A DNA stretch of 64,000 nt from Acidobacteriaceae bacterium. Its GTDB lineage: Bacteria > Acidobacteriota > Terriglobia > Terriglobales > Acidobacteriaceae. Within the stretch, counting starts at the first letter, position 1, and every line of letters begins with the position of its first letter. The notes under the pieces were generated by a model that had not been told where the DNA came from, did not search any database, and saw only the letters and a list, made by a program, of their open reading frames with translations. The stretch covers positions 11,393-75,392 of the forward strand of contig DASWOP010000250.1 in assembly GCA_036404255.1 (NCBI GenBank). Direction: 5' to 3'. Both the position numbers and the translations under genes were made by a program. Below are positions 3,697-61,948 of the stretch, in pieces.

Positions 3697-3705
3697 CGAT
3701 CCATC

Positions 3706-4752: not shown

Positions 4753-4831
4753 GCTGTCTTCCTCCGACTTGCCCAAACTTTTAATCTCAATGCATCTACA
4801 ATCAAGACAATAACACATACAAAGCAGCAAA

Positions 4832-4852
4832 ACGAAATAAAAAATAATACGA
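4832..4852. promoter_or_regulatory. ACGAAATAAAAA + ATAATACGA motif pair upstream of the AgaS-like operon; candidate DeoR/AgaR operator
   Basis: The 12-mer ACGAAATAAAAA and the 9-mer ATAATACGA both recur at 10196-10212. The reverse complement contains TTTCGTTTT. Confidence 0.35.
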
Positions 4853-4860
4853 GATCAAGA

Positions 4861-6405: not shown

Positions 6406-6555
6406 CTGGCCATCCTCCGCAACACGGTAAATCAGACGAGGTATAAAGCATAATAAACATAATAAAAAGATAAAAAAAGAAGTAGACTACTCTAAAATCG
6501 AAGTGCGGGTAGCTTCTCCAGTGCACTACGACGCGAAATACTTGAGGGTATAGAA

Positions 6556-7635: not shown

Positions 7636-7649
7636 TAGGGATGCGCGGA

Positions 7650-8828: not shown

Positions 8829-8840
8829 AGCGGAATTTCC

Positions 8841-10139: not shown

Positions 10140-10195
10140 TGCTGAGTCCTTCTTTTCATAGTCAATCTTTATGTTTGAATACATACAAAAACATA

Positions 10196-10212
10196 ATAAT
10201 ACGAAATAAAAA
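10196..10212. promoter_or_regulatory. ATAATACGAAATAAAAA in the divergent kbaZ/amidohydrolase promoter region; candidate DeoR/AgaR operator
   Basis: Exact 12-mer and 9-mer shared with 4832-4852. The neighbouring ATAAAAAGATA recurs at 6462-6472. Confidence 0.35.
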
Positions 10213-10239
10213 GATATACAATTGACTGCAGGAGAGAAA

Positions 10240-11286: not shown

Positions 11287-11489
11287 ATTCTCCGTGCTGA
11301 CTACCCCTTTGCTAAATGTGGAGATTAAAGGCAATATAATGGTCTAGATCGTAAGGTGCTTTTTGTATCGCTTTTGAATCTGTCATTTTGATTGTGTTTG
11401 TCCAGGTCAACTCGAAACGTATGATGCTTCAGAATACTTACAAGCACAGAGTTCTTTGCCACTGATTCAATCGGAGAATATAACCTCTC

Positions 11490-12311
11490 GTGATGAAAAC
11501 TCAATCCATAGTCAAACGTCATCCCATGCCCCATACTGAGCCCGGTAATCTGCTGATCGGAGAGCGACACCAGCTTATTCTGGAAGTACTGAACCGGGAT
11601 GGTCGCGTGCTGGTTTCCGAGCTATCCAACTCACTTGGCATTTCTCCCATCACCATTCGCAAAGATCTTGATCACCTGGAGGCGCAGCGATTGCTGCAGC
11701 GCACGCACGGCGGAGCACTGCCGCCAAGCACCAGTACCCTGATTGATCCTTCTGTGAAGGAGAAGGAGCAGCAACAGAGCGAGGAGAAGCGCCGCATCGC
11801 CGCAGCCGCAGTCGGGCTAGTGAAGGAAGGCCAGTGCATCCTGCTTGACTCCGGTACCACCGTCATGGCTATTGCACGTGCGCTACGCAAGTTTTCTAAT
11901 CTCACGATCGTGACTAATGCCGCAAACATCGCAGCGGAGTTGAGCGATACCGGATTCGAAATCATTCTGACCGGCGGAACGCTACGGAAAAATTCACTGT
12001 CGCTGGTAGGTCCGCTGGCTGAGGATGTACTGAAGCAGATCCGCGCTGACATTCTTTTTCTGGGCGTCGACGGTTTCGACCCGAAGATCGGAGTGACAAC
12101 TCCCAATGTGCTGGAGTCACGAGTAAACCGGGCAATGGTGAGCGCTTCACGCAGGGTAATTGCAGTATGCGACTCCACTAAATTTGGCCGCTCCAGCATG
12201 GCACTGATCGTACCGCCAACAGCAATTCACACCGTCATCACAGATAATCAGGCTGCAAGTGTGCATGTGAAGATGCTACGCAGCGCAGGTATCGAGGTCA
12301 TCATCGTCTGA
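11490..12311 (+). CDS. DeoR/GlpR-family transcriptional regulator (AgaR-like)
   Basis: N-terminal HTH (VSELSNSLGISPITIRKDLDHLE...RTHGGA) and C-terminal DeoR sugar-binding domain. Confidence 0.9.
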   Translation: MMKTQSIVKRHPMPHTEPGNLLIGERHQLILEVLNRDGRVLVSELSNSLGISPITIRKDLDHLEAQRLLQRTHGGALPPSTSTLIDPSVKEKEQQQSEEKRRIAAAAVGLVKEGQCILLDSGTTVMAIARALRKFSNLTIVTNAANIAAELSDTGFEIILTGGTLRKNSLSLVGPLAEDVLKQIRADILFLGVDGFDPKIGVTTPNVLESRVNRAMVSASRRVIAVCDSTKFGRSSMALIVPPTAIHTVITDNQAASVHVKMLRSAGIEVIIV

Positions 12312-12336: not shown

Positions 12337-13872
12337 TTATGCGTGAATGCTAACAAGCGCTGCACTTCCTGGCGGCATGGTAATTTTGAATTCGCTGGCG
12401 GTGGTGCGGCGTAGAATTTCCGCCCTATCTGTAGCTAGCTGGCCATCACTCCCTACGGTTGCGTTTCCAAAGCGAATGCCGGTGGTCGCTTCCAGCGCTG
12501 GGCCAGTCAGGCGTTGAACAGATGCCGTGTGGAACAACTTTCCAGTACTGAGCAACATATCCGTCGCCTGCGAACCCTTATTAAAGATAGCGATCTGCAT
12601 AGTTTTGCCTGTTGCAGTAAGCGCGGCATAGGCCGTAATAGTAGATTGCGCTTCTGAGAAAGAGCTTTCGACTAAATTTGCTCCAGCCATGCGTGCTACC
12701 AGCAGCATGCCATAGAAAATGGGTCGTGCCGAGTATCCATGACTAGCGCTGCCCGCAATAGGCGTGTAGTAGGAATCATCCGCTTCGCTTTTTGCAACGG
12801 CATCTCCAGGCATCTTGCCGCCAAGCGAGGCTCTAATCTGCCGCGCGCTACCCCCATGGAAATTGATGCCGCAAAATCCAGCCGACAACAACTTGAGCGT
12901 AAGGTCTCCGGCCCACAGAGCCGATCCCAGGGTGTTGCTTACTCCGGGTTTACCGCCGGAGTAGCAGGAATTTACTTCCGTCATGCGAAAGGGCAAACCG
13001 GCATGGTGGCCTGCTGTCGCAGTCACGTTGATCTCATGATCGATCTTCTTCGGGTTTAGTAATAAGTTTTGCATCGTCGACTCAGGGCTGGTCGGGGGGC
13101 CTTCGGCATAGAAGTGATCCGTGATTGCGACGAGATGTTGTTTCATCTCTGCAACAGCTTCGCTCGCGAAGAGATTCATCCAGGCAGCCTCTGCACCCAT
13201 ATCGGGACCAGCGAGTCTAGCCGTGGGTATACGCTTCACAATCGCACGTGCGAAACTAAGCCACTCAGCCAGATAGACCTTTTCATTCCAGGCATCTGAA
13301 CGAAGCCGGTAGCGGATGTAATTATTCGGCTCGTTGCCAATCTGAAGATACTCGAGCTTAGATCCCAATATTTCTACAACGGCCGCCGCTTCTTCGGCAG
13401 CACGCTCCGGCGTGCCCGTGCCCAGGTTCAATCCATAGATGCAGTTCCAGCCGGTTACATTCAGAAAGTGACGAAGATTGTGCAACGCAGCCGGGGTAAT
13501 AGGGGTGAGTTCCTTCGGCTGAGTCGGTTGAGGAAACCACGCTGGTGCCTCCACCGTTGCATTGGCTTTGAAGTACGTGAACTCGCTGGTATTCCCCCCG
13601 AGCCGCAAGCTGCCGCTGGGGCTGAGTGTCCGAAGAAACTGCACCAGGGCTTTGTTCGACGGAGCAAAGTATTCCGGCTCACCAAGCTGTGTGGATTCGT
13701 AACTAAGTCCCATGACATCGCGTGGAATGAAGCCCCTGTGCTGCCCGGGATGAACCTGGAGCGTGAGCGGCTGACTCATGGCAGTACCCATGCCCCACAA
13801 AGGATGTGCGGCAGCCCCGAGCATGGCAAGACTGGTCGGAGCAGAAACAAGAAAGCGGCGTCTGTTCATCAT
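12337..13872 (-). CDS. Clan GH-A glycosidase, best guess GH79 beta-glucuronidase/heparanase-like
   Basis: Tat-like leader MMNRRRFLVS. LEYLQIGNEPNNY (acid/base NEP) and FRMTEVNSCY (nucleophile TE) at the spacing expected for a (beta/alpha)8 barrel, followed by a C-terminal beta domain. Confidence 0.55.
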   Translation of the reverse strand: MMNRRRFLVSAPTSLAMLGAAAHPLWGMGTAMSQPLTLQVHPGQHRGFIPRDVMGLSYESTQLGEPEYFAPSNKALVQFLRTLSPSGSLRLGGNTSEFTYFKANATVEAPAWFPQPTQPKELTPITPAALHNLRHFLNVTGWNCIYGLNLGTGTPERAAEEAAAVVEILGSKLEYLQIGNEPNNYIRYRLRSDAWNEKVYLAEWLSFARAIVKRIPTARLAGPDMGAEAAWMNLFASEAVAEMKQHLVAITDHFYAEGPPTSPESTMQNLLLNPKKIDHEINVTATAGHHAGLPFRMTEVNSCYSGGKPGVSNTLGSALWAGDLTLKLLSAGFCGINFHGGSARQIRASLGGKMPGDAVAKSEADDSYYTPIAGSASHGYSARPIFYGMLLVARMAGANLVESSFSEAQSTITAYAALTATGKTMQIAIFNKGSQATDMLLSTGKLFHTASVQRLTGPALEATTGIRFGNATVGSDGQLATDRAEILRRTTASEFKITMPPGSAALVSIHA

Positions 13873-13985: not shown

Positions 13986-15884
13986 TCAAGGACCTACATT
14001 GACGGCAATCGGCGTAACGACTGGTGTGGCAATACCTACAAAGATAGTGACGGAATTATCACCAGAGTTGGCAGTCCATATATTACCGCTTGGATCCACC
14101 GCAATCGCGACAGGGAGACTCAGCACGCCGTATCCCGTCGCAGGTGAAACCGCGGTGCTACCTGAAAATTCCGAGATGGACGCACTATTGGCAAACCATG
14201 CCATACTATTGCCGTCGTATGCCACAGCAAGAGGCAGTGTCAGTCCGCCGCCCAGTACGGGGCTAGCTGTATCCACGGCACCTGTATTTACAGCCAGTGT
14301 GAACGCACCGGAAATCGATGCACCGGTGGTGCTTCCAGTCATGACAATCGCTCCGCTACTGTTGATTGCCAGGCCTGTACTTCCAAAAAGGAAGCCATCG
14401 CTTATGCAGTTCTGAAAGACAGCGGCACTGCTGAAGAGGCAAAGCTGCCCTGTTCCGGAGTTGGCAATGACTATGCGTCCAGTGGAATCAAGGGCAATCG
14501 CGGTGGGCTCACTGAGTGCGCCGGACCCCGTGATGGGGCTTGAGCCGCTGGGTGTACCGGATGAACTCAACTCTGTAATAGAATTGCCGCTGAAGTTCGC
14601 TACCCATGCATTGCCGACAGAATCATTGACAATCGCAACTGGCGTAGAGATGCTACCGCCGGTGAAGCCTGAACCGGAAAGCGCAGCGCCTGCGCTGCTC
14701 AACTTGACTACGCTATTACCACCAGTATTTGCGATCCACAGGTTGCCGCTACGATCGATTGAAATCCCACGTGGCGAGAGCAATCCAGCATTGCTATAAG
14801 GCGTAGTTGTGAATGAAGATGAGAGACTAGGAAACTTCACAACCGAGAAGCCGCCTTCGTTAGTTACCCAGGCATTTCCACCGGCATCAATTGCTATGCC
14901 ACCAGGACTGGTCATCTCCGATCCGGTGTAACTCACAGAGAGCGTGAAATCACCCGGCTGTGCACTGAGACCCGGAGAAAATGGTGGCGTCCCTGTGACT
15001 AGCGAATATAGTCCCGTAATAGATGAGCTACCGGGATGATTTGCCATGGCGAGTCCAGCGTCGATCGTCTCCGTAGCGCCAGTGGCGGAGAGCAGCGACA
15101 TGCAGGACACGGAGGCAGCAGCACTTGTTCCATTCACACAGGAAGCCAGGATATTGGCCAGCGTATTCAGACGCGCGACTGGAAGCGTGATGCCAGCAGA
15201 TGGCGTCGCGATCAAGCCAGTCTGAAAATTGACGAGCGTGTTGACCATATTGAACGCATTGACCAGCCCCGTGGGATTGCTTCCAGTAGCACCGACATGC
15301 GTGTAATCACCCATGAACGGAGCAAGTGCATAAACCGCGGCCACAGTTGTAAGTTCATTCAGGTTGATAAAGGTGCCCGATGTGAGCGAACTGCATGGGC
15401 CCAGCGCTGCCAACAGACCTAGCGCGGTATTGTTGCCTCCACCAGCGTTACCACCAGTCGCCGTGATGTAAACCTGTGTAGCCGATGAACAGGAGTAGTC
15501 TCCCGTGATGGTGAATTCGCCAATCGGTAATGTATTGAATGCGTTGCCAGCATTGCCACCGGTACCGGAACCATCGCTGGTAGTCACGGCGCTTGTGAGC
15601 AATGCCCTCGAAGCCGATCTCGCGCCTGCAGTACCCACAGTGTAAAGCTGAATTGTTGCACCGCTCACCGGTTGCTGTCCGCCTTTAACGCGCCCCTGCG
15701 CAATGATCGTGCTCTTCCCGCCGCTGCCACCGCCATTGTCGGCAAGCGATCGCGCGGTACCCGCACCGCAGCCGCCAAGTAGTGCGGATGCCAGCATTGC
15801 CACGCCGCCTAGCATAAGCGCTCTGGCTGAGTGAGACTGAGACTTCGCAAATGACGATATATCGTTCATAGTGTTTTCTCGCAT
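13986..15884 (-). CDS. Surface lipoprotein with CarboxypepD_reg-like domain and 6 NHL-like blades (paralog 2 of 3)
   Basis: Lipobox ALLGGCG. GRVKGGQQPVSGATIQLY. NELTTVAAVYALAPFM. Repeated GNAWVTNEGG / GNLWIANTGGNSVVKL / GNAWVANFSGNSITEL / GNIWTANSGDNSVTIF. Confidence 0.75.
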   Translation of the reverse strand: MRENTMNDISSFAKSQSHSARALMLGGVAMLASALLGGCGAGTARSLADNGGGSGGKSTIIAQGRVKGGQQPVSGATIQLYTVGTAGARSASRALLTSAVTTSDGSGTGGNAGNAFNTLPIGEFTITGDYSCSSATQVYITATGGNAGGGNNTALGLLAALGPCSSLTSGTFINLNELTTVAAVYALAPFMGDYTHVGATGSNPTGLVNAFNMVNTLVNFQTGLIATPSAGITLPVARLNTLANILASCVNGTSAAASVSCMSLLSATGATETIDAGLAMANHPGSSSITGLYSLVTGTPPFSPGLSAQPGDFTLSVSYTGSEMTSPGGIAIDAGGNAWVTNEGGFSVVKFPSLSSSFTTTPYSNAGLLSPRGISIDRSGNLWIANTGGNSVVKLSSAGAALSGSGFTGGSISTPVAIVNDSVGNAWVANFSGNSITELSSSGTPSGSSPITGSGALSEPTAIALDSTGRIVIANSGTGQLCLFSSAAVFQNCISDGFLFGSTGLAINSSGAIVMTGSTTGASISGAFTLAVNTGAVDTASPVLGGGLTLPLAVAYDGNSMAWFANSASISEFSGSTAVSPATGYGVLSLPVAIAVDPSGNIWTANSGDNSVTIFVGIATPVVTPIAVNVGP

Positions 15885-15899
15885 GAAACGCTCTTCAAG

Positions 15900-18800
15900 C
15901 TAGTTCAGCGTTTGCATGAACGTTTGCGTGGCCTCCCACCAGCCGGTGCTGTCATCCCATGCATAGCTCGACGATGACCAGATCACGACGCCGTCAGCAA
16001 GTGAGTATGCCGTCTGCAGTTGAAATGCCCAATATGCAGCGCTCACATACTGCCCGGCCTTGGCTGTGCCTGGGTGATACTGCGGTGAAATGTAGATATA
16101 TACCGGCTTGCCCGGCGCGATTGCACGCGCCGCAGCTACTTCCTGCGCTGCCAGCGAGGCCCATGCTGCCTGATCGTCATTGTAGGTATACATCGACGGA
16201 AACATTGCGGTTACTTGCGTCCCAAGTGCCGTGGCATATTGCATGTTCTGCGTCGAAACATTGTCGAAGGTGTTGTAGCCATAGTAGCCCACAAGTTTAC
16301 CGGGATGGTCTGCCTTAGCCCACGTAGCCAGCGTCGCCAGTATCTGCTCGTTTGCTGTCGAGGTCAGTCCAAGCAGCTCGACATCCAGAACCAGCGGACC
16401 AGGATTGGTGTACTTCGCCATCAACGTGTCAAAGGAACTACGCGTGGGTAGCGTCTGTTCATCAGCTTGGGTTGTTCCGCTGGAGTCCACCCAGATCTTG
16501 CTTTCATAGACGACGTTGGAAGTAATCAAACCGTAGGTGCTGGTAGTTGGCTTGCCCGAATAAAACATATTGTCGTAGACAACGAAGGATGTTGGCTGTG
16601 CTGTAAAGCTGCGTGTCACTGGAGTGGCAGCAGCAAAGTTCGTATTACCAGCCTGCGATGCGGTGACGGAGACCGCGCCGGTTCCTGTCACATAAAGCGT
16701 ACTTCCGCTCACAGTGGCCGGCCCGCTGGCAACAGCATATGTTGCCGGCAGGCCGCTGGTGGTATATGCAGCAAGCTGCACGCTGGTATCGTTGCTAGGA
16801 TAGTTTGCCAGTGCAGGAAAAATGATGCTCTGTGCCGCGCTTCCGGTCACACTCAGGGTCGCGCCGGTCGTCAGCGCAAAGCCATAGTTATTGGCACTGG
16901 AACTTACCAGTGTTCCCTGCGATACAGTAATGGGATAGCTGCCCACAGGCGACTTAGGCACCGCAGTTGTCGAGATCAGCGGCGACCCAGTAACGCTGTT
17001 CGCCTGTGTATCGGGAGAGATAAAGCCAGTGATTGTATAGCCGAACGTTGGGTTCGCAGTTCCGTAAATACGTGAAAGGAGGCCGCTCGGAGTAACGGTG
17101 AGCGTAGCAGTATTTACTACAATGCTTTGCTGAACAGGTGTTGCTGCAGCGTAGATGGCATTGCCCGCTTGAGAAGCTGTAATCACGACGGTGCCGGTAC
17201 CTGTAAACGTGAGCATGTTGCCGCTCAGTGTGGCTGGGCCCGTGGCATTGTAGGTAACGGGCAGGCCGGAGCTTGCCGTTGCGCCCAAGCCGATCGACGG
17301 AGCGCCGTAAGCCACCGGCGATGTAGGCGCAGGAAACGTAATCGTCTGCGCCATAGTTCCTTGGCTATATGGCTTCAGGATTCGAACCACATTGTTGCCG
17401 CTATCTCCGAAGTAAACATTACCGCTGGTATCTACTGCGATATGTCCTGTTGGTGTGGAGAGAACTGCGTTTGTAGCAACGCAACCATCGCCATAACCAT
17501 CGGTCGAACAGGCAGCTTCTGTCGTACTCGATCCACCGCCGGCAACTATCGCAGCGTTTTGCGTGCTTGCAGTCACCTCCCATATCTGGTTGGCAACTGC
17601 ATCTGCAATGTAGAGATTGTTGGACGCATCGAATCCGATACCAGTAGCACTGCTCAGCTTAATGGATGTTGCGGCAGCGGCAGTTGTGCCGCTGCCGCCG
17701 CCTGCATAGGTATAGATGTCTTTGCAGGTCGCCAACGTACCTGTGGTAGCAGTGCTGGCCATACCAGTGCAACTGGTTTGCGCCGTCGCATAGTATCCAG
17801 CGGGCGGCTGCGAGCCCAGATAAACCACGCGTACGCGTCCTGTAATAGCGCCATAATCTGCGATGTAGAGGTTGCCGTACGAATCGAATGCAAGATCATA
17901 TGGCTTGCTAAGATTGGCAGAACGTGCGGGTCCGCCATCACCGCTTTCTACTGAAGTGCAGCTAGTGTAAGTACCCTTTGAGACCGTCGCCTCCGCGCAA
18001 CCTGCTCCGGCTCCGCCTACCACTCCGGTCACATAACCAAGTGCACTTGCATTTCCAAGAGCATCGGTCGATGCTCCGGCGATGTTGATCTCGCGGACTA
18101 CATTGTTGCCGCTGTCTGCTACATAGAGATTGCCGTTAGCATCTACGGCCATCCCCTTTGGTCCGTTGAACTGCGAAAGCAGCACATATCCGCCATCACC
18201 AAAATACCCCGTACCGGGAGTATTTGAATTGATAAGAACATAGGAATAACCACTCTTCGCTGCTGTAGTACCAGCCGGTCCCGCAGAGCTTCCACCCGCA
18301 GCAAGGAAACTTGCCTGCTGTGTTCCAGCCACATATGTCATGCGAACGTAATTACTGCCTTCCTCAAAGATATTGCCGGATGCATCCACTGCAACGGCGG
18401 CAGAAGCAAATATCGTAGTGTAGCCAACTGCGCCGATCTGCGTGCTGGCAGTATATTGTCCACCGCCGATCACGTTGTACACGATATTAGGGGGTACCGG
18501 CGATGCCAGAATCGAACTGCTTGCATAACTAGCAACCAACGCCGTTCCCAGCGCAGCATTGGTTCCGTTGTAGAGCACGCGCAGCTCGCCTGTATATCCA
18601 GGACCTGGTGTGGAGCCGGTGTAGCTGTTCGCCGAAGTAGGTGTGGTATAGGTCGCACTATCACCAGTATCCGTGTTGGAGGTGTAATTTCCTCCGTCCG
18701 AGATATAAAGCTGGCCGAATGAATCGATCTGTGTCGCATTGGGCTTCGACACAAGTATCTGGCTCACGGAGCAGCCATCGCCGATATTTGATCCCAACAG

Positions 18801-19082
18801 TTTTGTAGAGGAATTGCCGTTCAGCGGAATGGAACTGGCACAGACATGAGTTACCGTGGGCGAAGTATTTGGCGTGATGCCCGGCTGACCGGCGTATGCC
18901 CCAATCGAAATCTGCGCATGCACGCCGGTAACTCCAGCCACCAATAATCCACATATTGCCATGCCTGCAATAACTAAGGATGCGCCCCTTCTACGCTTGT
19001 ATCCAGTGTTTGGCATAACCATTCTGAACCTTCCTTGCAATTCCAGCACTCCGCGGTGCTGCTCTTGAAAACATCGATTCAT
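15900..19082 (-). CDS. Secreted multidomain protein with NHL repeats, Ig-like and MBG domains, and a C-terminal GH56-like (hyaluronidase-like) domain
   Basis: Signal peptide. GNLYVADSGNNVVREI-type NHL repeats. MBG-type YGTANPTFGYTITGF...VGSYPI...NNYGF. The last 233 aa are homologous to the 29103-29975 product. Start is uncertain (19082, 19022 or 19016). Confidence 0.8.
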   Translation of the reverse strand: MNRCFQEQHRGVLELQGRFRMVMPNTGYKRRRGASLVIAGMAICGLLVAGVTGVHAQISIGAYAGQPGITPNTSPTVTHVCASSIPLNGNSSTKLLGSNIGDGCSVSQILVSKPNATQIDSFGQLYISDGGNYTSNTDTGDSATYTTPTSANSYTGSTPGPGYTGELRVLYNGTNAALGTALVASYASSSILASPVPPNIVYNVIGGGQYTASTQIGAVGYTTIFASAAVAVDASGNIFEEGSNYVRMTYVAGTQQASFLAAGGSSAGPAGTTAAKSGYSYVLINSNTPGTGYFGDGGYVLLSQFNGPKGMAVDANGNLYVADSGNNVVREINIAGASTDALGNASALGYVTGVVGGAGAGCAEATVSKGTYTSCTSVESGDGGPARSANLSKPYDLAFDSYGNLYIADYGAITGRVRVVYLGSQPPAGYYATAQTSCTGMASTATTGTLATCKDIYTYAGGGSGTTAAAATSIKLSSATGIGFDASNNLYIADAVANQIWEVTASTQNAAIVAGGGSSTTEAACSTDGYGDGCVATNAVLSTPTGHIAVDTSGNVYFGDSGNNVVRILKPYSQGTMAQTITFPAPTSPVAYGAPSIGLGATASSGLPVTYNATGPATLSGNMLTFTGTGTVVITASQAGNAIYAAATPVQQSIVVNTATLTVTPSGLLSRIYGTANPTFGYTITGFISPDTQANSVTGSPLISTTAVPKSPVGSYPITVSQGTLVSSSANNYGFALTTGATLSVTGSAAQSIIFPALANYPSNDTSVQLAAYTTSGLPATYAVASGPATVSGSTLYVTGTGAVSVTASQAGNTNFAAATPVTRSFTAQPTSFVVYDNMFYSGKPTTSTYGLITSNVVYESKIWVDSSGTTQADEQTLPTRSSFDTLMAKYTNPGPLVLDVELLGLTSTANEQILATLATWAKADHPGKLVGYYGYNTFDNVSTQNMQYATALGTQVTAMFPSMYTYNDDQAAWASLAAQEVAAARAIAPGKPVYIYISPQYHPGTAKAGQYVSAAYWAFQLQTAYSLADGVVIWSSSSYAWDDSTGWWEATQTFMQTLN

Positions 19083-19087
19083 GCTGA

Positions 19088-22000
19088 TTAGTTCGACGCT
19101 GCTACGACCAGCGTGATCGGAATCGATTCAACTGAGCCATTAGAGCTCGTGGCAGTCAGCGTAAACACCGTGGTTCCGGGCGGCGTAGTAACATTCGGCA
19201 GATCGTAGTAATTTGTCCCACTGCCGCAACCGGAGAGTCCGAGTCCGCCTAGTATCGGCAATACGCACAAGACAACCGCGAGTAGTGACTTGCGCATCGC
19301 AGCATTCCGTCGCTTGCGCCATGCCAGCAGAACCAGTCCACCCAAGAAAGTCAATCCGGCCTCAGTGACTTCAGAAACACGCCCACACTTAGCAGGAGTC
19401 TGCTGTTTCGCCAGGTTTGGCGTCACATTGGTAAACACCTCCAGCGTGAGCAAGCCAACAGGATCAGTTGCACTGTTACCACTGAATGTAAGGTTGGTGC
19501 CGGAAGGGACTGGACACGCCGAACCAGCTGCCGGAACTGATGGACAAGTCAGGAACCGGCAGAGAGAGTTCTGCGGAAGATTGGAACAGGTGAATGTCAC
19601 CGTACCGCTCAGTCCCATGTATGGCGTGACATAAACGCTGGTACTAGTCTCTGCGCCTTGCAACGTACTGAGCGTGGTAGCCAGGGCAGTCATTCCGAAG
19701 TCGCCCTTCACCGTAACTGAACTGGATGTAGATGAGAAAAAATTTGCGCCACCCAGATAGTTAGCACTAAAAGATGGATAGGTATTTGCGTTGATCGCCG
19801 TAGCAGCCAATGCCGTCGTGGCACCCGATATGGTGAGCGTAGCAACACCAGACGCATTGAGCGATGCGATACCCAGTGTGGTGGACCCAGCGCTGAATGA
19901 GACTACTCCAATGACTCCAGCTGCAGGTGATTTAACGGTTGCCGTCAACACATAAGCCGGTATTGCACTGCCCTGCACGCTGAGCGGCGCACCGGAGTAA
20001 GCGAGAGTCGTCGTGCTTGACTCAGGAATCACAGTGAGCGTCAGGCTGGCATGACTGGATACATAATTGGAATCGCCGCTATATTGCCCGGCAATACTGA
20101 ACGTACCCGCCTGCGGGCTAAAGGTATAGGTCGCGGTGCCGTTAGCAACCGTAAGCACTGTCTGCTGAATACCATTCACCTGCACTAGTATCTTCCCCGT
20201 CGCTGCCGTAGTGCCTGACTGTGTCAAAGTGAACGTAAGCGTGATGGGTGAGCCATAGCTGATTGACGAAGATGCGCTTGGCGATGAGCTAATAGTGAGA
20301 TTACTGTTGAGCAGGTTTACTCCGCTACCTGTCAGCGTTGAACTTACAGAGGAAGCATTCCCCGCGTTGGATGGGAAGGTAATCTTGTCCGAAAAACTGC
20401 CAAGTGCTACCGGAGAAAATACCGCAGAGATGCTGCATCCCGCACCAGCAATCAGAGCACTACCGGAGCATCCATTTGATGTCGATGCGCTAACCTGGAA
20501 ATCTCCAGTGTCTCCGCTGACGCTGTACGGTGCGCCGCCGGTAAATTGTAGCGCCGCATTACCAATATTGGTGAGAATGAAGGATGAGAAAGCTGAACTC
20601 TGCCCTACATTGAGAGGATAAAAGCTGGTGGATATCTGCTGACGGTTCAGGTACGTAACCCCAGCGCTAGTGTCTGTCACATAAACATTGCCTAGACTGT
20701 CAACCCAAAGTCCAGTCGGTGCAGTCAACCCAGACAGTAGGGTGACCGTGGTGACGCCCTGTGCGGAAATGAAGCCTACTTGCGATCCTGCCTTATCCAG
20801 CACATAGAAATTGTTGGCGGCGTCTATCCCTATGGCCGCAGGATTGAACAAACCGAGTGCAACCGGAGTGACCGCACCTGTCGATAACGTGACCTCAACC
20901 ACCCGGCTATTGCCTGAATCCACCACATACAGATTGCCGCTGCCATCCAGCGAAAGCTGCGTTGGACTGGAGACGCTCGTGGTCAGTACGGTGGATGCTC
21001 CCTGGCGGATCTGCATAATGCGGTTGTTGCCAGTGTCAGCAACATAGATATTGCCACCGCCATCCACCAACACTCCCTTTGGAGCAGCATAGCCGGTCAG
21101 ATATGAGACGGTTGCGCTGGTGTTGTTATAGATGGCCACACGGTTGTTCCCCGTATCCGCTACCAGCACATTGCCCTGGCCATCCACAGAAACCTGCGAC
21201 GGCGATGAAAGGCCGGTAATAAGTGATGTAGCTGTCAATGCGGTTGGGCTGGAATAGCGCAACACACTTCCGCTGGTCTTATCAGCAACATACACTTCGC
21301 CGGACGGATCGGATGTGACGCCGAGTGGCGCGGTTCCAGAGCCTACGGTAACGGGCGTCGCGTTATCCAGGGCAATCTCTGCCCCGCTTGCCGTGCCGCT
21401 CACGTAATTGGTGCCAATGGTATTGCCAGTAGAAGAGGATACTCTCACGCCACCAAGTCGCAGGCCAGGCAACGTCGGTTTGAATGTCACATTGAGGTAG
21501 CAGATCTGTCCCGCAGCTAGTGCCTGCCCGGATGTGTCACACGTGCTGCCGCCTGCATCAAGGAAATCGGAACTGGAGGCACCCTGCACGGCGAAGGTTG
21601 CACCACCCACTGTAACCGCACTGAGGGAAGCAAAAGCGAGCGCAGTGGACGAGGTGGAACCCAGAGCGGTAGATGGTGCCGCAGGCACGGACTTGGAAAG
21701 CTTGTGCACAACATTGGCGGACGAATCGGCAACATACAGATTTCCCTGCGCATCGAAAGAGATTCTACCGGTCGGGAAACCCAGAGTAGCCAGTGTAGCC
21801 AGGCAGCCATCGCCATTAGCATAAGTCCTAATGGGACCAGAAGCGAACGTGCTGGAGCACGCGGTTCCAGCCGCAGTCGATGTGCCACCACCGGCAATAA
21901 TCGTTGCCACCTGTGTGGCCGCGTCTACTTCCCAGATCTTGGCGCCAGTGCCATCAGCAATATAGAGATTGCCGGCTGCATCAAAGCCCAGGCCAGTAGC

Positions 22001-23200
22001 TGACTTCAGCAAAATCTGTGTCGCTGGACCACCCGTCGTCAAGGTGCCGCCACCGGCAACAGTATAGATATATCCCAACTGCGGGCTGCTAACGCCTGGA
22101 ATCGTACCGGTGCCGTTATAGATCACGCGAACACGTCCATTCCCAGAATCGGCAATATACAGATTGCCCGATGCATCAAACAGGACATCGTAGGGATTGT
22201 TCACTTCTGCAGACGTAGCAGGCCCCCCATCACCGATAGAACCGGCAGTGCAACCACCGGCTGAGCTAATCGCCGATGGCACCTGCACAGTAGCGCCAGT
22301 AATGGTGGCATAGGCGGAGACGACAGCCTGGGTACACACTGAGCCTGCAATCGTACTGATAATGCCTGTCGTGCCATTGATCATGCGGATAGCATTGCTC
22401 TTCGAGTCAGCGATATAAACATTCTCCGCCGAATCTACATACACTCCTTTTCCATTATTCGTTAGCGCCGCAATGGCCTTGCCGCCGTCACCGTAGTATG
22501 CGTTCAGACTGGCATAGATCATCGGATATACATTGCTCTGCTTAGGGCTGACAGTCCCAATCCCCGAAGTTGTTGCCTGTAGTAGTGCTGCCCCCTTGGT
22601 TCCTCCCACATACGCCATGCGCATGCGTGAATTACCTTCGGTCTCGATGATGTTGCCGTCGCCATCAATTGCCATGCCCGTTGGTGTGAGTGTTGTATTG
22701 CCGCAGCTTCCGCCGGCGGCAGAGATACTTGTATAGCCGTTCGAGTAGGGCCCGCATGCGTTATAAATATCACCGACAAGCAGTGATGAGGTCGTAATTA
22801 CGGATAGCTTGTTGTACGCGCTTACGATCGTCTGCAGTTCCGCTGCGCCACTCTGATAGATCACGCGAATCTGCTTGTCGCCCTGGTCGGCGATGAAGAT
22901 ATTATTCGTAGCCGGATCGATCAGCACCGACTGCGGCGCTTTCAGAATCGCCTGTGTCGGCAGACAGTTGTCCCCAGTAGAACCAACTGTTGTCGCGATC
23001 ACGGTGCTGCAGACCGTCTGCGTAGAACCGGTGGGAATGCCAACAGCCGTACTGATGTACGGAATCTGGATAGAGCCGGGGGTCTGGGCAAACGCGCCTA
23101 GACTCGCTGGTGCAAGAACCGCACACCAGAGCGCAGATCGCCACACAACTCCGCTGAACTTACCGCTATTGCCGTTTCGAGTGCCGCTACGTGGACTCAT
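19088..23200 (-). CDS. 1370-aa secreted NHL-repeat protein with choice-of-anchor-D/HYDIN-like and Ig-like domains and an unusual C-terminal TM hairpin
   Basis: Signal peptide ...ASLGAFAQ. Many GNLYIADSGNGRVRVIY / GNVLVADTGNNRVAIY / GNIYVADTGNNRIMQI repeats. C...C...V.F.P motifs (GQICYLNVTFKP, GAGCSISAVFSP). Confidence 0.85.
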   Translation of the reverse strand: MSPRSGTRNGNSGKFSGVVWRSALWCAVLAPASLGAFAQTPGSIQIPYISTAVGIPTGSTQTVCSTVIATTVGSTGDNCLPTQAILKAPQSVLIDPATNNIFIADQGDKQIRVIYQSGAAELQTIVSAYNKLSVITTSSLLVGDIYNACGPYSNGYTSISAAGGSCGNTTLTPTGMAIDGDGNIIETEGNSRMRMAYVGGTKGAALLQATTSGIGTVSPKQSNVYPMIYASLNAYYGDGGKAIAALTNNGKGVYVDSAENVYIADSKSNAIRMINGTTGIISTIAGSVCTQAVVSAYATITGATVQVPSAISSAGGCTAGSIGDGGPATSAEVNNPYDVLFDASGNLYIADSGNGRVRVIYNGTGTIPGVSSPQLGYIYTVAGGGTLTTGGPATQILLKSATGLGFDAAGNLYIADGTGAKIWEVDAATQVATIIAGGGTSTAAGTACSSTFASGPIRTYANGDGCLATLATLGFPTGRISFDAQGNLYVADSSANVVHKLSKSVPAAPSTALGSTSSTALAFASLSAVTVGGATFAVQGASSSDFLDAGGSTCDTSGQALAAGQICYLNVTFKPTLPGLRLGGVRVSSSTGNTIGTNYVSGTASGAEIALDNATPVTVGSGTAPLGVTSDPSGEVYVADKTSGSVLRYSSPTALTATSLITGLSSPSQVSVDGQGNVLVADTGNNRVAIYNNTSATVSYLTGYAAPKGVLVDGGGNIYVADTGNNRIMQIRQGASTVLTTSVSSPTQLSLDGSGNLYVVDSGNSRVVEVTLSTGAVTPVALGLFNPAAIGIDAANNFYVLDKAGSQVGFISAQGVTTVTLLSGLTAPTGLWVDSLGNVYVTDTSAGVTYLNRQQISTSFYPLNVGQSSAFSSFILTNIGNAALQFTGGAPYSVSGDTGDFQVSASTSNGCSGSALIAGAGCSISAVFSPVALGSFSDKITFPSNAGNASSVSSTLTGSGVNLLNSNLTISSSPSASSSISYGSPITLTFTLTQSGTTAATGKILVQVNGIQQTVLTVANGTATYTFSPQAGTFSIAGQYSGDSNYVSSHASLTLTVIPESSTTTLAYSGAPLSVQGSAIPAYVLTATVKSPAAGVIGVVSFSAGSTTLGIASLNASGVATLTISGATTALAATAINANTYPSFSANYLGGANFFSSTSSSVTVKGDFGMTALATTLSTLQGAETSTSVYVTPYMGLSGTVTFTCSNLPQNSLCRFLTCPSVPAAGSACPVPSGTNLTFSGNSATDPVGLLTLEVFTNVTPNLAKQQTPAKCGRVSEVTEAGLTFLGGLVLLAWRKRRNAAMRKSLLAVVLCVLPILGGLGLSGCGSGTNYYDLPNVTTPPGTTVFTLTATSSNGSVESIPITLVVAASN

Positions 23201-23221: not shown

Positions 23222-26200
23222 TTAATAAGAGAGCTTCAATGAGAGTTGGATGCGGCGAGCATTGGTGCCAACAGTATTACCGCCTGTCGTTGCCAGCACC
23301 TGGCCTTCATAGTCGACGCCAGAAGTAGGTGGCAGCGACGAGTTCGGGTTCGCGAGGTTAGGCGTATTGAAAGCATTGATAGCATCCGCACGGAAAGCCA
23401 GCCTCGTAGTATGCGTAATCGGCAACCGCAAGGTACGCCCAGCGGAGAGATTGAGCTGGATAAATGCAGGCCCACGCAGCCTATTACGGGATTGGTTACT
23501 GAAGACGCCTGCCGCGGTTCCATTCGGCGGAACAACCCAGGCTGCGGTGTTGAACCATTCACTAATCTTGTCAGCGCGATGCCGACCGCTGGACAACGTG
23601 CCTTTCCCATACCCAGGCAGCAACTGGGCACGCTGGCGGCTACCTACTTCAGCCGTAAATGCCGCATCAGTCGTTAAGGTAACCGAGAAAGGCTTGCCAC
23701 TCTGCGCCGTGTACATGCCACTCTGTGTCCAATTGCTCAGTAAAATGCGCAGCGGGCGAGGGCCGTGACTAAACTTGGTTGGCAAAAAGGCCCAGCCTAC
23801 AGCAGTGGTCAGCTTTACGTCATAATCCGAAGGCCCATGCTCGCTGCTCAAATTGTCTATCTGTGGAACACTGCTTGACGTCGACGTACCAGTACTAAAC
23901 TCATCCAGCGACTTTGCGTATGCAAAGGTCGCGGTTAGAGAAACAATCTTTGCCCCACGCTCCTGGTAGAGCACCTGCACACCGTTATAGCTGGAGCTGC
24001 CAATGCTCTGGTATTCCACCACGCCCTGTCCGCCATAGTTAAAGCCAGGATAGCGGACCCGCGCGGCATACGATGCGGCCGTATTCGCACCTGTTGCCGG
24101 ACAATAGAGCGATGGATTGATCTGGTAGTACGCTCCAGTGCAATCGTAGATAGCTGGGTTCTTATCCAACGGTAGTGACTGATGACGTCCGAAACGTCCG
24201 ACGTAGTTCACCTCAAGCGAACCATGGCGCATGATGCTCTGCTGGAAGCCGAAGTTAACGGCTTCTGTATAGCCATCGCGATAGTTTCTATCCGGAAAGA
24301 AGATGGAAAATGGAAGATTGAACTGAGGATTGGTCCCGTCGTAGTTCTTGGGAATAGCCGGCAAACCCAGCAGCGGCTGGGATACGCCGCCTGAAGGATA
24401 GGCGTAATTTGCAATGTAGTGGAAGGGTTCTCCAACGCCAATTGTGAGCGCATTGGTCGCATCGTAGAAGATGCCAAATCCGCCGCGCACCGACGTTCTG
24501 CCATTACCGAAGAGATCATACGCAAAGCCGAAGCGAGGCGCAAAATCCTTATACTCGTTTTTGATTAAGGAGCGCGGAACTCCAGGGTCCCCAACGAATG
24601 CGAGATCCGGCACGGCGTTGGGGAAGATGACGGACTGATAGCCGGGGATGAAAGTAGTGTTCTGGTTCTTTGGCTGGTAGTAACGGAATGGAAGCTCGTA
24701 TCGCAGGCCAATGTTCAATGTCAGGCGAGGTAGAATGCGCCAATCGTCCTGTGCATAAAAATAGAAGTCATGTTGAATGCCGGAGCGGTTAAGTGAATTG
24801 GCGAAGTTTTCATTACTGGGCAGACCGAGGATCTCATCGCCCTGCGATACCAGGGAATATGTTCCGCTGAACGAGAACACGGGCGCGCTCTCTGAAACAT
24901 TCGCATACTGCAGCCGGAGAAAATCGACGCCAAATTGCGCGTTGTGCTTACCTCGTGACCAGGTCAAAGTATCCACAGCTTCTACATCTTCATTCACCGT
25001 GGAAGAGACCGCCTGGTTGGCCGTACCCATACCAGGAAAAACCGGCAGTACAGCTATGGAGTTATAGCTGGGAAAAGCCGCACCGAAATCCGACAATGTT
25101 GTGTGATCGATGGGTGAGTACTGGTAATCATAGCGCTTGTAGGCAAGACGGAATACGTTGAGCAGGTTGGGGCGAATGACCCAGGTATCACCAATGTCTC
25201 CGAAGTACGTTCCACCGTAATCCGCATCCGGTTCATAGCCGGCAACCGACGCATTCGTAGCCGAGACTGCGTTGTGCGCCAGTATATCGTTCGCTGAGGT
25301 CTGGTAGTAGCGCGCATCCAGCGTGTGGCCGTAGCCAAGATTGTAATCCAGGCGCAAGAGACCATTCTGGTCATTCTGTGGCAAGGAATAGGCCGTCGGC
25401 GTTTTGGTGGTAGGCGTGCCGTTGATGGAGGTCGCAATTGCGAGTGGCAGGTACTTCTGCATAGCTGCGAATACTACGGGATTGATACATATCGACGGAA
25501 GTTCATTGCCGACAATCGTCACCGCTGGCGAAGCCTTGCTCAGTGCAGTCTGCAGCAGTTGAACGCAGGGCGAATTCTGACCAGTGGCAAGCGTGTTCCC
25601 TGCCTGCACATACGCCGCATTCAAACCGGCAATGGCTACGGTTGAGGTGCTTGCCGTGGTTGCATTGGAGATGGGGTTATGTAGGTAGGTTTGTGGATTG
25701 CCGCTGGTATCGCGATAGGTTGGACCGGCGAGATCTGATAAATTGATGCAGTTTCCCGTACCCGCAAAATAGCCGGTGGAGGAACACGGAGTCGGGTTGC
25801 CGTTTGCGTCATAACCACGATCTGCCGCAGTAAAGCCGCCGCTGGTGACATTATTGTTCGCCGTCTGTGCGATGCGGAGACCTTGATACGAGCTGAAAAG
25901 GAAGAGCTTATCGCGGACGATGGGGCCACCGACAGTAATGCCGTACTGGTTCTGAATGAGCTTGGAGGGATGTTTGAGGAAGTAGTCCTGCGCGTTCAGA
26001 GCAGTGTTCTGCAAGTATTCATACAGTACGCCGTGAAACTGGTTGGTCCCGGACTTTGTAATCGCATTGAAAACGCTGCCCACGTTACGGCCATATTGGG
26101 CCTTGAAGTTATTGAGCAGTACACTGACTTCCTGTAGAGCATCTGGCGGAGGAAAATTCAGGCCGCTATTGGTATAGAGATTGTTCCACATCGTACCGTC

Positions 26201-26854
26201 AAGCAAAAATAGATTCTGAGTATTCCGGGCGCCAGAGACGTTGTATGCAGGACCAGAAGTGCCATCGCTGCTTGAAGAATCTCCCGTGAATGTTGTTGGC
26301 GCACTGACACCCGATACACCCGGCAGAAGCGCAGCCAGCGATATAACACTATTGCCATCGATCGGCATATTGTGGATAAGATTTTCGTCAATCAGCACAC
26401 CCACCGTTGCCGATTGCGTATCCACCGTATTGCCACTCGCCTCCACGGTCACCGTGGCTTCATCTGACTTCGGCTTGAGCACGGTATCAAAGCGGATATT
26501 CTTGTCAGAGTCCACAATAATGCCAGTCGCCTTGACTGTCGCAAAGCCCGGGGCCGTGATGGTGAGGGTGTATGTCCCCACTGCAACGGAAGAAAACAGG
26601 TACTCGCCGCTGCCATTGCTGTTCTTGGTAAGCGTCTGGCCGCGTTCTACCGATGTCAACATCACCGATGCAAACGGAACTACACTGCCGGTACTGTCCG
26701 TAATATTGCCCAGCACCTGCCCGGTATTCGCAAGCTGCGCCTGGACTGCGGCAGTGAGCAGCAGCGGAAGAACCGCACAAAGCACGATCAGCGCACGCTG
26801 AATACGGCGACGGTGCCGGGGAGCAATCACCGTCCATTCGGAGTTGGTCATCAT
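23222..26854 (-). CDS. TonB-dependent receptor, acidobacterial CarboxypepD_reg-plug-barrel type
   Basis: 1210 aa. N-terminal GNITDSTGSVVPFASVMLTS...GTYTLTITAPGFATV. Long beta-barrel. Terminal ...RRIQLSLKLSY. Confidence 0.9.
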   Translation of the reverse strand: MMTNSEWTVIAPRHRRRIQRALIVLCAVLPLLLTAAVQAQLANTGQVLGNITDSTGSVVPFASVMLTSVERGQTLTKNSNGSGEYLFSSVAVGTYTLTITAPGFATVKATGIIVDSDKNIRFDTVLKPKSDEATVTVEASGNTVDTQSATVGVLIDENLIHNMPIDGNSVISLAALLPGVSGVSAPTTFTGDSSSSDGTSGPAYNVSGARNTQNLFLLDGTMWNNLYTNSGLNFPPPDALQEVSVLLNNFKAQYGRNVGSVFNAITKSGTNQFHGVLYEYLQNTALNAQDYFLKHPSKLIQNQYGITVGGPIVRDKLFLFSSYQGLRIAQTANNNVTSGGFTAADRGYDANGNPTPCSSTGYFAGTGNCINLSDLAGPTYRDTSGNPQTYLHNPISNATTASTSTVAIAGLNAAYVQAGNTLATGQNSPCVQLLQTALSKASPAVTIVGNELPSICINPVVFAAMQKYLPLAIATSINGTPTTKTPTAYSLPQNDQNGLLRLDYNLGYGHTLDARYYQTSANDILAHNAVSATNASVAGYEPDADYGGTYFGDIGDTWVIRPNLLNVFRLAYKRYDYQYSPIDHTTLSDFGAAFPSYNSIAVLPVFPGMGTANQAVSSTVNEDVEAVDTLTWSRGKHNAQFGVDFLRLQYANVSESAPVFSFSGTYSLVSQGDEILGLPSNENFANSLNRSGIQHDFYFYAQDDWRILPRLTLNIGLRYELPFRYYQPKNQNTTFIPGYQSVIFPNAVPDLAFVGDPGVPRSLIKNEYKDFAPRFGFAYDLFGNGRTSVRGGFGIFYDATNALTIGVGEPFHYIANYAYPSGGVSQPLLGLPAIPKNYDGTNPQFNLPFSIFFPDRNYRDGYTEAVNFGFQQSIMRHGSLEVNYVGRFGRHQSLPLDKNPAIYDCTGAYYQINPSLYCPATGANTAASYAARVRYPGFNYGGQGVVEYQSIGSSSYNGVQVLYQERGAKIVSLTATFAYAKSLDEFSTGTSTSSSVPQIDNLSSEHGPSDYDVKLTTAVGWAFLPTKFSHGPRPLRILLSNWTQSGMYTAQSGKPFSVTLTTDAAFTAEVGSRQRAQLLPGYGKGTLSSGRHRADKISEWFNTAAWVVPPNGTAAGVFSNQSRNRLRGPAFIQLNLSAGRTLRLPITHTTRLAFRADAINAFNTPNLANPNSSLPPTSGVDYEGQVLATTGGNTVGTNARRIQLSLKLSY

Positions 26855-28978: not shown

Positions 28979-29005
28979 TTTCTATCGACTTAATAATGGC
29001 AAATA

Positions 29006-29026
29006 AATCATTTTTATGAAATGATT
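29006..29026. promoter_or_regulatory. Palindrome AATCATTT-N5-AAATGATT, 77 nt upstream of the 29103 start
   Basis: Read directly; 8-bp perfect arms. Confidence 0.3.
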
Positions 29027-29102
29027 CGACGCAAACAACATCACCTTCCGTGCGGGAAGTGCCGCCGGCTAACTATCTGCCACATAAATCAGGAGTTCCC
29101 AT

Positions 29103-29975
29103 ATGACATTGTTCCGGAAAATAAGCCTGCTCATTCTGCTCTTTGCGATGGGGATGGTCTTCCCTTGTCCTGCTCAGACATCCCCCAAAAAGTTCACCAT
29201 CTATGAGTTCATTCCCTACCGTGACCACGTTGCCGGCAGCGAAATTACTCGCGTCCCTTCATTGGATCAATATCTGGAGACTCTCGGCATTCATCGCATC
29301 AAAGTCATCTATCTTGATCGCTTCATGACCAACGATCAGCCTGACGAAAAGAAGATCGAGACCATCGCCAAATCCGCAATCGGATCGCCCAACATCCCCG
29401 TCTCTTTCGATACGGAGCTCGGAGACCGCTTTCACCCGGAGACTGTGATCCCACGCGTCAGCGACATTCTCAGCATCTATCACCGCTACAACACCGTCAC
29501 ACCGGCCGGCGTATATGCCACGGCCCCCCAGAATACCTACGCCTGGAAACCGGATATCAACCGTTTTGACTCGCTGAATGAAAGCTACCGCACCATTGCC
29601 CAGCAGATCGATTTCCTCAGCCCCGTGCTCTACAACTACGAGGGCACCGACATCGAAGCTTGGAAGCGCGCAGCAGTGTACAACATTGATGCTGCGAAGA
29701 AATATCAGACCGGCAAGCGGATACTTCCCTACATCAGCGTCATCATCCGGCTGCAGTCCTCTGGCAAAGATGACAACAGCCAGCACGGGGCAATCCGTAC
29801 GCTGACGGAAGCCGAGATGCTGACACGATTGCAGACCATTTACGAGCTCGGCGCGGATGGCTGCATTGTGTGGGCCAGCAGCGGCGACCGGACGTTGGAT
29901 GGCAAGGTGCCCGTCTTCGATCGCAATAGCGGTTGGGGCAAAGCACTCGCCGATTTCGCGAAAGCTCATCCGTAG
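29103..29975 (+). CDS. Small secreted protein with GH56-like (animal hyaluronidase-like) motif order
   Basis: Signal peptide MTLFRKISLLILLFAMGMVFPCPAQ. Blocks PVSFDTELG, PAGVYATAP, FLSPVLYNY, ILPYISV and LGADGCIVWASSGD. Homologous to the C-terminal 233 aa of the 15900-19082 product. The antisense 236-aa ORF was rejected. Confidence 0.6.
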   Translation: MTLFRKISLLILLFAMGMVFPCPAQTSPKKFTIYEFIPYRDHVAGSEITRVPSLDQYLETLGIHRIKVIYLDRFMTNDQPDEKKIETIAKSAIGSPNIPVSFDTELGDRFHPETVIPRVSDILSIYHRYNTVTPAGVYATAPQNTYAWKPDINRFDSLNESYRTIAQQIDFLSPVLYNYEGTDIEAWKRAAVYNIDAAKKYQTGKRILPYISVIIRLQSSGKDDNSQHGAIRTLTEAEMLTRLQTIYELGADGCIVWASSGDRTLDGKVPVFDRNSGWGKALADFAKAHP

Positions 29976-33437: not shown

Positions 33438-33451
33438 GCAGGAGGCATCAC

Positions 33452-35791: not shown

Positions 35792-35796
35792 CTACT

Positions 35797-61926: not shown

Positions 61927-61948
61927 ACAGCTCTCCTTCAAGAGAAAA

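Follow-up and report, generated by a model that had tools for sequence, protein, structure and literature searches.

We analysed a 64,000-nucleotide stretch of an Acidobacteriaceae metagenome-assembled genome (MAG; assembly GCA_036404255.1, contig DASWOP010000250.1, positions 11,393 to 75,392), hereafter the window. At its centre is a gene at 29103..29975 on the forward strand, whose product is a real but very distant relative of the bee-venom and human hyaluronidases of glycoside hydrolase family 56 (GH56). The gene and the residues that link it to this family are as follows (aa, amino acids).

29103..29975 (+): coding sequence of the GH56-like protein; ATG start, 290 aa plus stop; HEY0308852.1, Acidobacteriaceae MAG
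29103..29174 (+): predicted Sec signal peptide, residues 1-24, cleaved between CPA and QT; read from the sequence by eye
29409..29417 (+): catalytic D-x-E, residues D103-T104-E105; predicted roles are general acid/base for E105 and, for D103, orienting the 2-acetamido group of the substrate
29514..29516 (+): Y138, aligned with bee Tyr184 (GYY block); at least 90% conserved
29631..29633 (+): Y177, aligned with bee Tyr227 (PSVY block); invariant in 75 sequences
29871..29873 (+): W257, aligned with bee Trp301 (GADGxIIW block); at least 90% conserved

The open reading frame (ORF) has exactly the limits, start codon and length given in a first-pass annotation of this DNA, and an exact sequence look-up retrieved an identical NCBI entry, HEY0308852.1 ('hypothetical protein VGB94_11885'). 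An AGGAG ribosome-binding site lies at 29091-29095, 7 nucleotides (nt) 5′ of the ATG. The gene is monocistronic, with a 491-nt gap to a divergent major facilitator superfamily (MFS) transporter gene and a 481-nt gap to a convergent DeoR regulator gene, as expected of the stand-alone gene that had been proposed. Given the full-length conserved homologs of the forward frame, we dismissed an opposite-strand ORF (29259..29969, 236 aa) as a shadow ORF. Recent horizontal acquisition is likewise unsupported, since the GC content of the gene (0.54-0.57) matches that of its neighbours.

The protein is predicted to be exported and to comprise about 265 aa when mature. Its N-terminus, MTLFRK-ISLLILLFAMGMVF-PCPA followed by QT, has by eye the n/h/c layout of a Sec signal peptide, and an A-Q cleavage junction recurs among its orthologs. 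All homologs inspected carry a type I signal, except for two Bacteroidota in which a lipobox (LSMGC, LSLGC) takes its place, and the structural model of the window protein has low confidence across the first ~30 residues. The earlier description of the protein as secreted thus agrees with these readings as far as export is concerned. In the two Bacteroidota homologs the lipoprotein signal is followed by acidic residues, an arrangement that would fit surface exposure.

The family to which the protein belongs comprises 46 clusters among 5.8 billion proteins and 102 representative clusters among 1.84 billion. None of the 46 close clusters has a precomputed Pfam domain, and those that are named are all called 'hypothetical protein'. 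We built two profiles, one from 34 sequences of closer relatives (A1) and one from 75 sequences spanning the whole bacterial family (A2). Searched against the Protein Data Bank (PDB), the closer profile matched bee-venom hyaluronidase 1FCQ at E=5.6e-5. The family-wide profile reached 1FCQ at E=1.3e-14, wasp 2ATM at 3.7e-9, human HYAL1 (2PE4) at 6.5e-6 and PH-20 (9JUB) at 1.1e-3, and nothing but GH56 chains appeared below E=0.8. A profile-profile comparison by hhalign of A2 with a GH56 alignment gave a probability of 97.9% and E=4e-13 over 238 columns, covering window residues 26-274. That GH56 alignment (A4) combines an Apis florea sequence rebuilt from P0179 and P0169 with fragments from PDB segments; the rebuild was needed because a search with a 1FCQ fragment returned only insect GH56 exon fragments. 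The resulting profile is thin (effective number of sequences 1.8), since only such exon fragments and PDB segments went into it. A word-indexed homolog search with A2 retrieved bacterial family members only and did not reach animal GH56.

Members of the family also connect to Pfam directly. Of the 75, 36 match PF01630 (Glyco_hydro_56) at E<=1, and three of ten distant members tested pass its curated threshold of 23.2 bits (P0094, 42.7; P0141, 31.9; P0110, 31.5), with P0112 and P0138 just under it. The window protein itself falls below that threshold. The Pfam check proposed in the first-pass annotation is therefore positive for some family members and negative for the window protein taken alone; its homology to GH56 emerges only at the profile level.

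The first-pass annotation had listed five blocks of bee-venom hyaluronidase and paired them in order with blocks of the window protein. The 1FCQ chain does contain all five (GVIDFESW, NWGYYAYP, VLLPSVYL, VLPYYWY and LGADGFIIWGSSDD), and the profile alignments pair each with the quoted window-protein block in the same order, so the collinearity holds.

The AlphaFold model built on the A1 alignment has a mean predicted local distance difference test score (pLDDT) of 89.6 and a predicted template modelling score (pTM) of 0.85. It shows seven main strands alternating with helices. The protein is accordingly predicted to be a compact seven-stranded barrel of the triosephosphate isomerase (TIM) type, like the (beta/alpha)7 barrel of GH56. 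When the model was compared with the PDB by Foldseek, the structural check that had been suggested earlier, ranks 1-4 were all GH56 entries (1FCQ, 1FCU, 2J88 and 2ATM; TM-scores 0.44-0.56). The best of these was 1FCQ (E=1.7e-8, TM-scores 0.55/0.52), and identity to GH56 was 15-16%. A search of the BFVD fold collection returned generic TIM barrels only. Because profile matches and structure agree, we take the resemblance to GH56 to be homology and not chance.

The correspondence extends to the catalytic residues. GH56 enzymes are described as (beta/alpha)7 barrels in which a Glu acts as proton donor and catalysis is substrate-assisted and retaining (PMC12254123). In the family-wide alignment, the block 'vvlDiEsW' pairs with 108-GVIDFESW of 1FCQ, VIDFERW of 2ATM and VIDWEEW of PH-20, which places D103 (codon GAT, 29409-29411) and E105 (codon GAG, 29415-29417) on D111 and E113 of the bee enzyme, the very pair that had been put forward as catalytic. 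The block 'vGvYa' pairs with WGYYA (Y138 with Y184), 'PsLYny' with PSVYLR (Y177 with Y227) and 'GADGviiW' with GADGFIIW (W257 with W301), the last three bee numbers being counted from the alignment. We take D111, E113, Y184, Y227 and W301 in bee numbering to be residues that line the GH56 catalytic cleft in 1FCQ and 2PE4. E105 and Y177 are invariant across the 75 sequences, in which mean column identity is only 24%, and conservation reaches at least 90% at D103, G136, Y138, P142, D170, P174, W187, W257 and W278. In the model, D103 and E105 directly follow strand 100-102, Y138 directly follows strand 135-137, Y177 directly follows strand 175-176, and strand 253-257 ends with W257. Because four of these residues directly follow model strands and W257 ends its own, the model places all of them on the catalytic face of the seven-stranded barrel, as an active-site D-x-E would be.

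Several observations weigh against assignment to an active GH56-type fold. As a single sequence, the window protein had no match in Pfam or NCBIfam even at E<=10, and its best phmmer match in the whole PDB, again 1FCQ, came through the LGADGxIxWxSS block and was no better than E=0.31. Structurally, 1FCQ is matched with a TM-score of moderate size (0.55), and other TIM-barrel glycosidases rank no more than 2-3 orders of magnitude behind it. Where distant family members keep D-x-E-x-W, the window protein's clade has Gly in place of the Trp (DTELG in the window, DTEFG in close orthologs). The disulfide Cys of the bee enzyme (YPYCYN, SAQCEA) align to non-Cys columns, and the sole conserved Cys of the family, C254 (GADGC), is confined to the closer clade. 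Overall, we are highly confident that the protein is homologous to GH56 enzymes and that its active site is intact.

Relative to characterised GH56 enzymes (Api m 2, 1FCQ; wasp Ves v 2, 2ATM; HYAL1, 2PE4; PH-20, 9JUB), the likeness thus consists of profile homology, a predicted barrel, five collinear blocks, the aligned D-x-E, two Tyr and one Trp, and export. The differences are also considerable. At 15-16% identity, the window protein is some 60-90 residues shorter, mainly because it lacks an insertion of ~35 residues after the D-x-E strand; it has no counterparts of the disulfide Cys and no C-terminal domain of the epidermal growth factor (EGF) type. It is bacterial and encoded within a TonB-receptor locus, and its Bacteroidota homologs lie in SusC/SusD loci.

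The genes surrounding it in the window are listed below, from left to right.

2749..12311: second sugar cluster, comprising PfkB kinase, AgaS-like SIS protein, sulfatase, lyase-like protein, GH88, GatZ/KbaZ and DeoR genes (Pfam)
4861-6405: sulfatase (Pfam)
6556-7635: Alginate_lyase-domain protein (Pfam; weak PDB matches to polysaccharide and alginate lyases)
7650-8828: GH88 unsaturated glucuronyl hydrolase (Pfam)
8841-10502: GatZ/KbaZ (Pfam)
11490-12311: DeoR regulator of the second sugar cluster (Pfam)
12337..13872 (-): GH79 beta-glucuronidase, 511 aa, last gene of the leftward string (phmmer)
13986..23200 (-): three large NHL-repeat/Big_3_5/MBG proteins of 1370, 1060 and 632 aa (Pfam)
23222..26854 (-): TonB-dependent outer-membrane receptor (CarboxypepD_reg, Plug and OMP_b-brl_4); syntenic in L001, L002 and L007
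26938..28611 (-): MFS sugar transporter, first gene of the leftward string (Pfam Sugar_tr, 3e-77); syntenic in L001, L002 and L007
28612..29102: divergent intergenic region between the MFS and GH56-like genes, aligned with orthologous loci L001 and L007
30457..31242 (-): DeoR-family regulator; its ortholog adjoins the GH56-like gene in L007
31343..36950 (+): amino-sugar (N-acetylglucosamine, GlcNAc) catabolic cluster (Pfam); the DeoR-SIS-BadF-GH20 set also occurs in L007
31343-32515 (+): SIS deaminase/isomerase (Pfam)
32520-33437 (+): BadF-type sugar kinase (Pfam)
33395-35791 (+): GH20 beta-hexosaminidase (Pfam)
35707-36525 and 36450-36950 (+): NagA-like amidohydrolase in two overlapping ORFs (N- and C-terminal parts of Amidohydro_1)

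The leftward string, from the MFS transporter through the receptor and the three NHL proteins to GH79, lies entirely on the minus strand and is closely spaced. The GH79 protein has no significant Pfam match (Glyco_hydro_79C weak only), and phmmer relates it to the Acidobacterium capsulatum beta-glucuronidase 5G0M/3VNY at E=7e-91. With receptor, transporter and GH79 on the divergent side and GH20 and amino-sugar genes downstream, the gene lies in the glycan-utilisation setting that the first-pass annotation had described. The split NagA-like gene reflects either a frameshift in the MAG assembly or a pseudogene. The cluster at 2749-12311 looks like a pathway for (sulfated) N-acetylgalactosamine (GalNAc) and uronate glycans. 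Its functional tie to the GH56-like gene would follow from proximity and from the arrangement of Mucilaginibacter loci.

The three NHL proteins show weak Vgb_lyase matches, and may be surface glycan-binding or accessory proteins or beta-propeller enzymes.

The intergenic region upstream of the gene contains an A-rich block of ~60 nt (28714-28774; GTGGCATAAACATACTTGACGAAAACAAAAA...AAAAGCATACAAAA) that is almost identical in the window, L001 and L007, whose flanking proteins are only 70-77% identical. Two further segments, 28957-28973 and 29002-29022, are conserved in the window and L007 and lie 80-145 nt upstream of the ATG. From this conservation, the blocks are probably divergent promoters or operators. 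Scans of the flanks of the gene gave no match to a sigma-70 consensus promoter and no Rfam family, and the single terminator-like hairpin they contain is no more than chance would yield.

Comparable neighbourhoods surround the homologs. In the three peat-metagenome loci L001, L002 and L007, whose GH56-like proteins are 70-74% identical to that of the window, the NHL-receptor-MFS string is divergent from the GH56-like gene; the 1370-aa and 1060-aa NHL proteins are kept beside the receptor in L001 and L007. L007 also carries DeoR-SIS-BadF, GH20 and a GH79 ortholog (69% identity) within 8 kb, with GH79 adjoining GH20. L001 has uronate-catabolism genes (UxaC, UxaE, a PfkB kinase and a short-chain dehydrogenase/reductase, SDR) within 10 kb.

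Homologs from Bacteroidota are 34-39% identical to the window protein. Five of their loci (L009, L019, L020, L022 and L027, including four Mucilaginibacter genomes) place the gene after SusC-SusD-DUF5017 and before GH20. The composite order is SusC-SusD-DUF5017, a heparinase II/III-like lyase, the GH56-like gene, GH88, GH20 and NagB/PIG-L, in which lyase, GH88 and NagB/PIG-L are variably present. In three of the five, all Mucilaginibacter, the lyase immediately precedes the GH56-like gene and GH88 follows it; L009 and L022 have GH20 without lyase or GH88. A sulfatase adjoins the gene in another Bacteroidota MAG (L017), and a NagB/PIG-L-like gene does so on the contig L021. The loci of both phyla are thus utilisation loci centred on a TonB-dependent receptor, without SusD in the window and with SusC/SusD in Bacteroidota. 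Proteobacterial copies occur in Collimonas, Caballeronia, Burkholderiaceae, Methylococcaceae, Legionella and Pseudomonas; the neighbourhoods in Collimonas, a Burkholderiaceae MAG, L008 and L003 held no informative genes.

We propose, as the likelier reading of the active site, that the protein is a retaining, substrate-assisted endo-beta-N-acetylhexosaminidase. Glu105 would protonate the glycosidic oxygen, and the nucleophile would be the 2-acetamido oxygen of the substrate itself, positioned by Asp103, Tyr138 and Tyr177, with Trp257 lining the -1 subsite. The enzyme, at work either outside the cell or in the periplasm, would cut beta-linkages of N-acetylhexosamine (HexNAc) inside an acidic polymer of glucuronic acid (GlcA) and HexNAc; hyaluronan, chondroitin and microbial polymers that resemble them are examples. 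Fragments with GlcA at the non-reducing end could then be taken up by the TonB-dependent receptor and the MFS transporter encoded on the divergent side, GH79 beta-glucuronidase and GH20 beta-hexosaminidase would trim them alternately, and the released amino sugars would pass to the products of the kinase, deacetylase and SIS deaminase genes. Where lyase and GH88 are present, the hydrolase may take linkages or oligosaccharides beyond the reach of the lyase. Activity, substrate and co-regulation of the locus are all things that we infer, and the hyaluronan- or chondroitin-like substrate, which is read from the neighbouring genes, is put forward only tentatively. In soil and peat, one may speculate that such substrates include invertebrate chondroitin, hyaluronan- or chondroitin-like microbial capsules and GlcA-GalNAc teichuronic acids.

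The gene content resembles two known systems. Lysosomal breakdown of hyaluronan in animals uses HYAL1 (GH56), the beta-glucuronidase GUSB (GH2) and the beta-hexosaminidase HEX (GH20). The window has a GH56-like protein, an exo-type beta-glucuronidase homolog and GH20 within 24 kb, and L007 has the three within 8 kb; the window glucuronidase, however, belongs to GH79 and not GH2, and the likeness comes from gene content alone. In lyase-based glycosaminoglycan utilisation, as in Bacteroides polysaccharide utilisation loci (PULs), PL8 or heparinase-type lyases act with GH88 and sulfatases. The Mucilaginibacter loci, with lyase, GH88 and a nearby sulfatase, resemble this arrangement, and the window likewise has GH88, a lyase-like protein and a sulfatase upstream. 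Known bacterial breakdown of hyaluronan and chondroitin is, however, credited mainly to lyases, and here a hydrolase-type GH56 relative adds to or replaces the lyase.

Other features of the neighbourhoods count against the proposed activity and substrate. The commonest neighbour across phyla is GH20 with amino-sugar catabolism, a linkage that chitin, N-glycans or other HexNAc substrates would also fit. The GH88, lyase-like and sulfatase genes of the window lie ~19-24 kb upstream of the GH56-like gene and may form a separate locus, and proteobacterial homologs sit amid unrelated housekeeping or prophage genes. The most durable alternative accordingly keeps the fold and mechanism and changes the substrate: an endo-beta-N-acetylglucosaminidase or chitinase-like enzyme that acts on a uronic-acid-free glycan (chitin or chito-oligosaccharides, fungal wall, N-glycan cores, poly-GlcNAc or peptidoglycan-derived glycans) and feeds the GH20/GlcNAc cluster. 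GH20 or amino-sugar neighbours in the window, L007, L009, L019, L020, L022 and L027, and the NagB/PIG-L-like gene in L021, favour it. It fits the GH20 linkage best; L009 and L022 carry GH20 with neither lyase nor GH88, and a homolog is present in Collimonas, a fungus-feeding, chitinolytic genus. GH18 chitinases, moreover, use the same substrate-assisted chemistry and a D-x-E motif. The predicted chemistry of the window protein resembles that of GH18, GH20, GH84 and GH85 in general, in that an acetamido group serves as nucleophile and an Asp/Glu pair follows a barrel strand, but Pfam scans detected no sequence relationship to any of them. The protein lacks the GH18 motif DxxDxDxE and reads NIPVSFDTELGD around its catalytic pair. 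Sequence and structure favour GH56 over GH18 or GH85: no GH18 Pfam match was found among the top families of the 75 members, and the first GH18 entry in the Foldseek search stood at rank 47. A uronic-acid-free substrate would also leave unexplained the GH79 gene that ends the divergent operon, and it sits poorly with the GH88 and lyase genes directly flanking the gene in three Mucilaginibacter loci and with the uronate catabolic genes near it in L001. On balance, we regard this alternative as unlikely.

Much less probable is a generic TIM-barrel glycanase of clan GH-A, mannanase- or glucuronidase-like, whose resemblance to GH56 would be that of the shared barrel. Foldseek does list GH5 mannanases, GH2 beta-glucuronidases, GH164 and GH10 at E=1e-6 to 1e-4. 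The sequence profiles, however, match GH56 alone and no GH-A family; clan GH-A is defined by Asn-Glu at the end of strand four and by Glu at the end of strand seven, positions where the conserved residues here are Tyr138 and Trp257. Another possibility is that a GH56-like enzyme has given rise to a glycan-binding protein with no catalytic role, comparable to the chitinase-like lectins. The loss of the D-x-E-x-W Trp in the window's clade speaks for it, but it is very improbable given that the acid/base Glu, which such lectins typically lack, is invariant and that the Asp, both Tyr and Trp257 are kept in sequences down to ~20% identity.

The proposed assignment of a GH56-type endo-beta-N-acetylhexosaminidase to bacteria bears on how this family is currently viewed. 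A 2024 review places microbial hyaluronan-degrading enzymes in polysaccharide lyase (PL) families and in GH16/GH84, and gives GH56 to mammals and venoms (PMC11669647). Automated, dbCAN-type annotation has nevertheless reported 'GH56' genes in soil Acidobacteria (bioRxiv 10.1101/2021.04.09.439258). Because of that annotation, and because some distant family members pass the Pfam cut-off, bacterial GH56-like sequences are not entirely unseen. We found no characterised bacterial GH56 in the literature. The suggestion that such a protein would be unusual and uncharacterised thus stands in its second half and is qualified in its first. The GH56 fold and catalytic set are known; the novelty lies in the bacterial form, which is compact, lacks the disulfides and is encoded in uptake loci. 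Members of the window protein's clade fall under annotation thresholds and are labelled hypothetical.

It is possible, at odds that we put somewhat short of even, that GH56 is not an animal invention. Acidobacteriota, Bacteroidota and Proteobacteria would then share a sparsely distributed sister family of exported enzymes that depolymerise hyaluronan- or chondroitin-like GlcA-HexNAc polymers by hydrolysis and not by a lyase reaction. In soil Acidobacteria these enzymes would act alongside GH79 and GH20, as a bacterial equivalent of lysosomal hyaluronan breakdown. The bacterial family could be the origin of the animal enzymes or have arisen by transfer from them, and the question of where animal hyaluronidases came from would be opened. 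If the reading is right, soil and peat carbon cycling would gain a hydrolytic path for acidic polymers of amino sugars, and a family now called 'hypothetical protein' would gain an annotation. Recombinant animal hyaluronidases serve drug delivery (PMC13059328), and the bacterial proteins would offer compact (~265 residues), disulfide-free, prokaryote-expressible hyaluronidase scaffolds.

Some distant homologs differ in architecture and context. P0071, P0074, P0104, P0111, P0123 and P0132 carry the GH56-like domain inside proteins of 1100-1600 aa, and the large distant members bear type IX secretion C-terminal sorting domains, CBM96, Listeria-Bacteroides repeats or an OmpA domain. Because of these domains, the large proteins may be surface-anchored or secreted depolymerases. 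In Pseudomonas juntendi (L005, 8883-12239), the homolog and a divergent DUF6492 gene lie in a prophage-like tail/lysis region, between a Peptidase_S74 tail-fibre gene and a phage lysozyme/DUF2514 lysis cassette. In P. parafulva (L023) the DUF6492 and GH56-like genes are likewise paired, but those phage genes are absent, so the two may form a mobile cassette; a tblastn search of a phage genome collection, with the Pseudomonas protein as query, gave no match.

The remainder of the window contains further genes. Two large ORFs (60061-62115 and 61949-64000) have no Pfam match. Between 52647 and 60015 lie another TonB-dependent receptor (52647-56369) and a second GH88 (58729-60015), together with genes for an AraC regulator and an EamA transporter. 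The plus-strand segment 39830-41774 encodes a chalcone/stilbene synthase-like type III polyketide synthase and, after it, a methyltransferase, a pair unrelated to the glycan loci.

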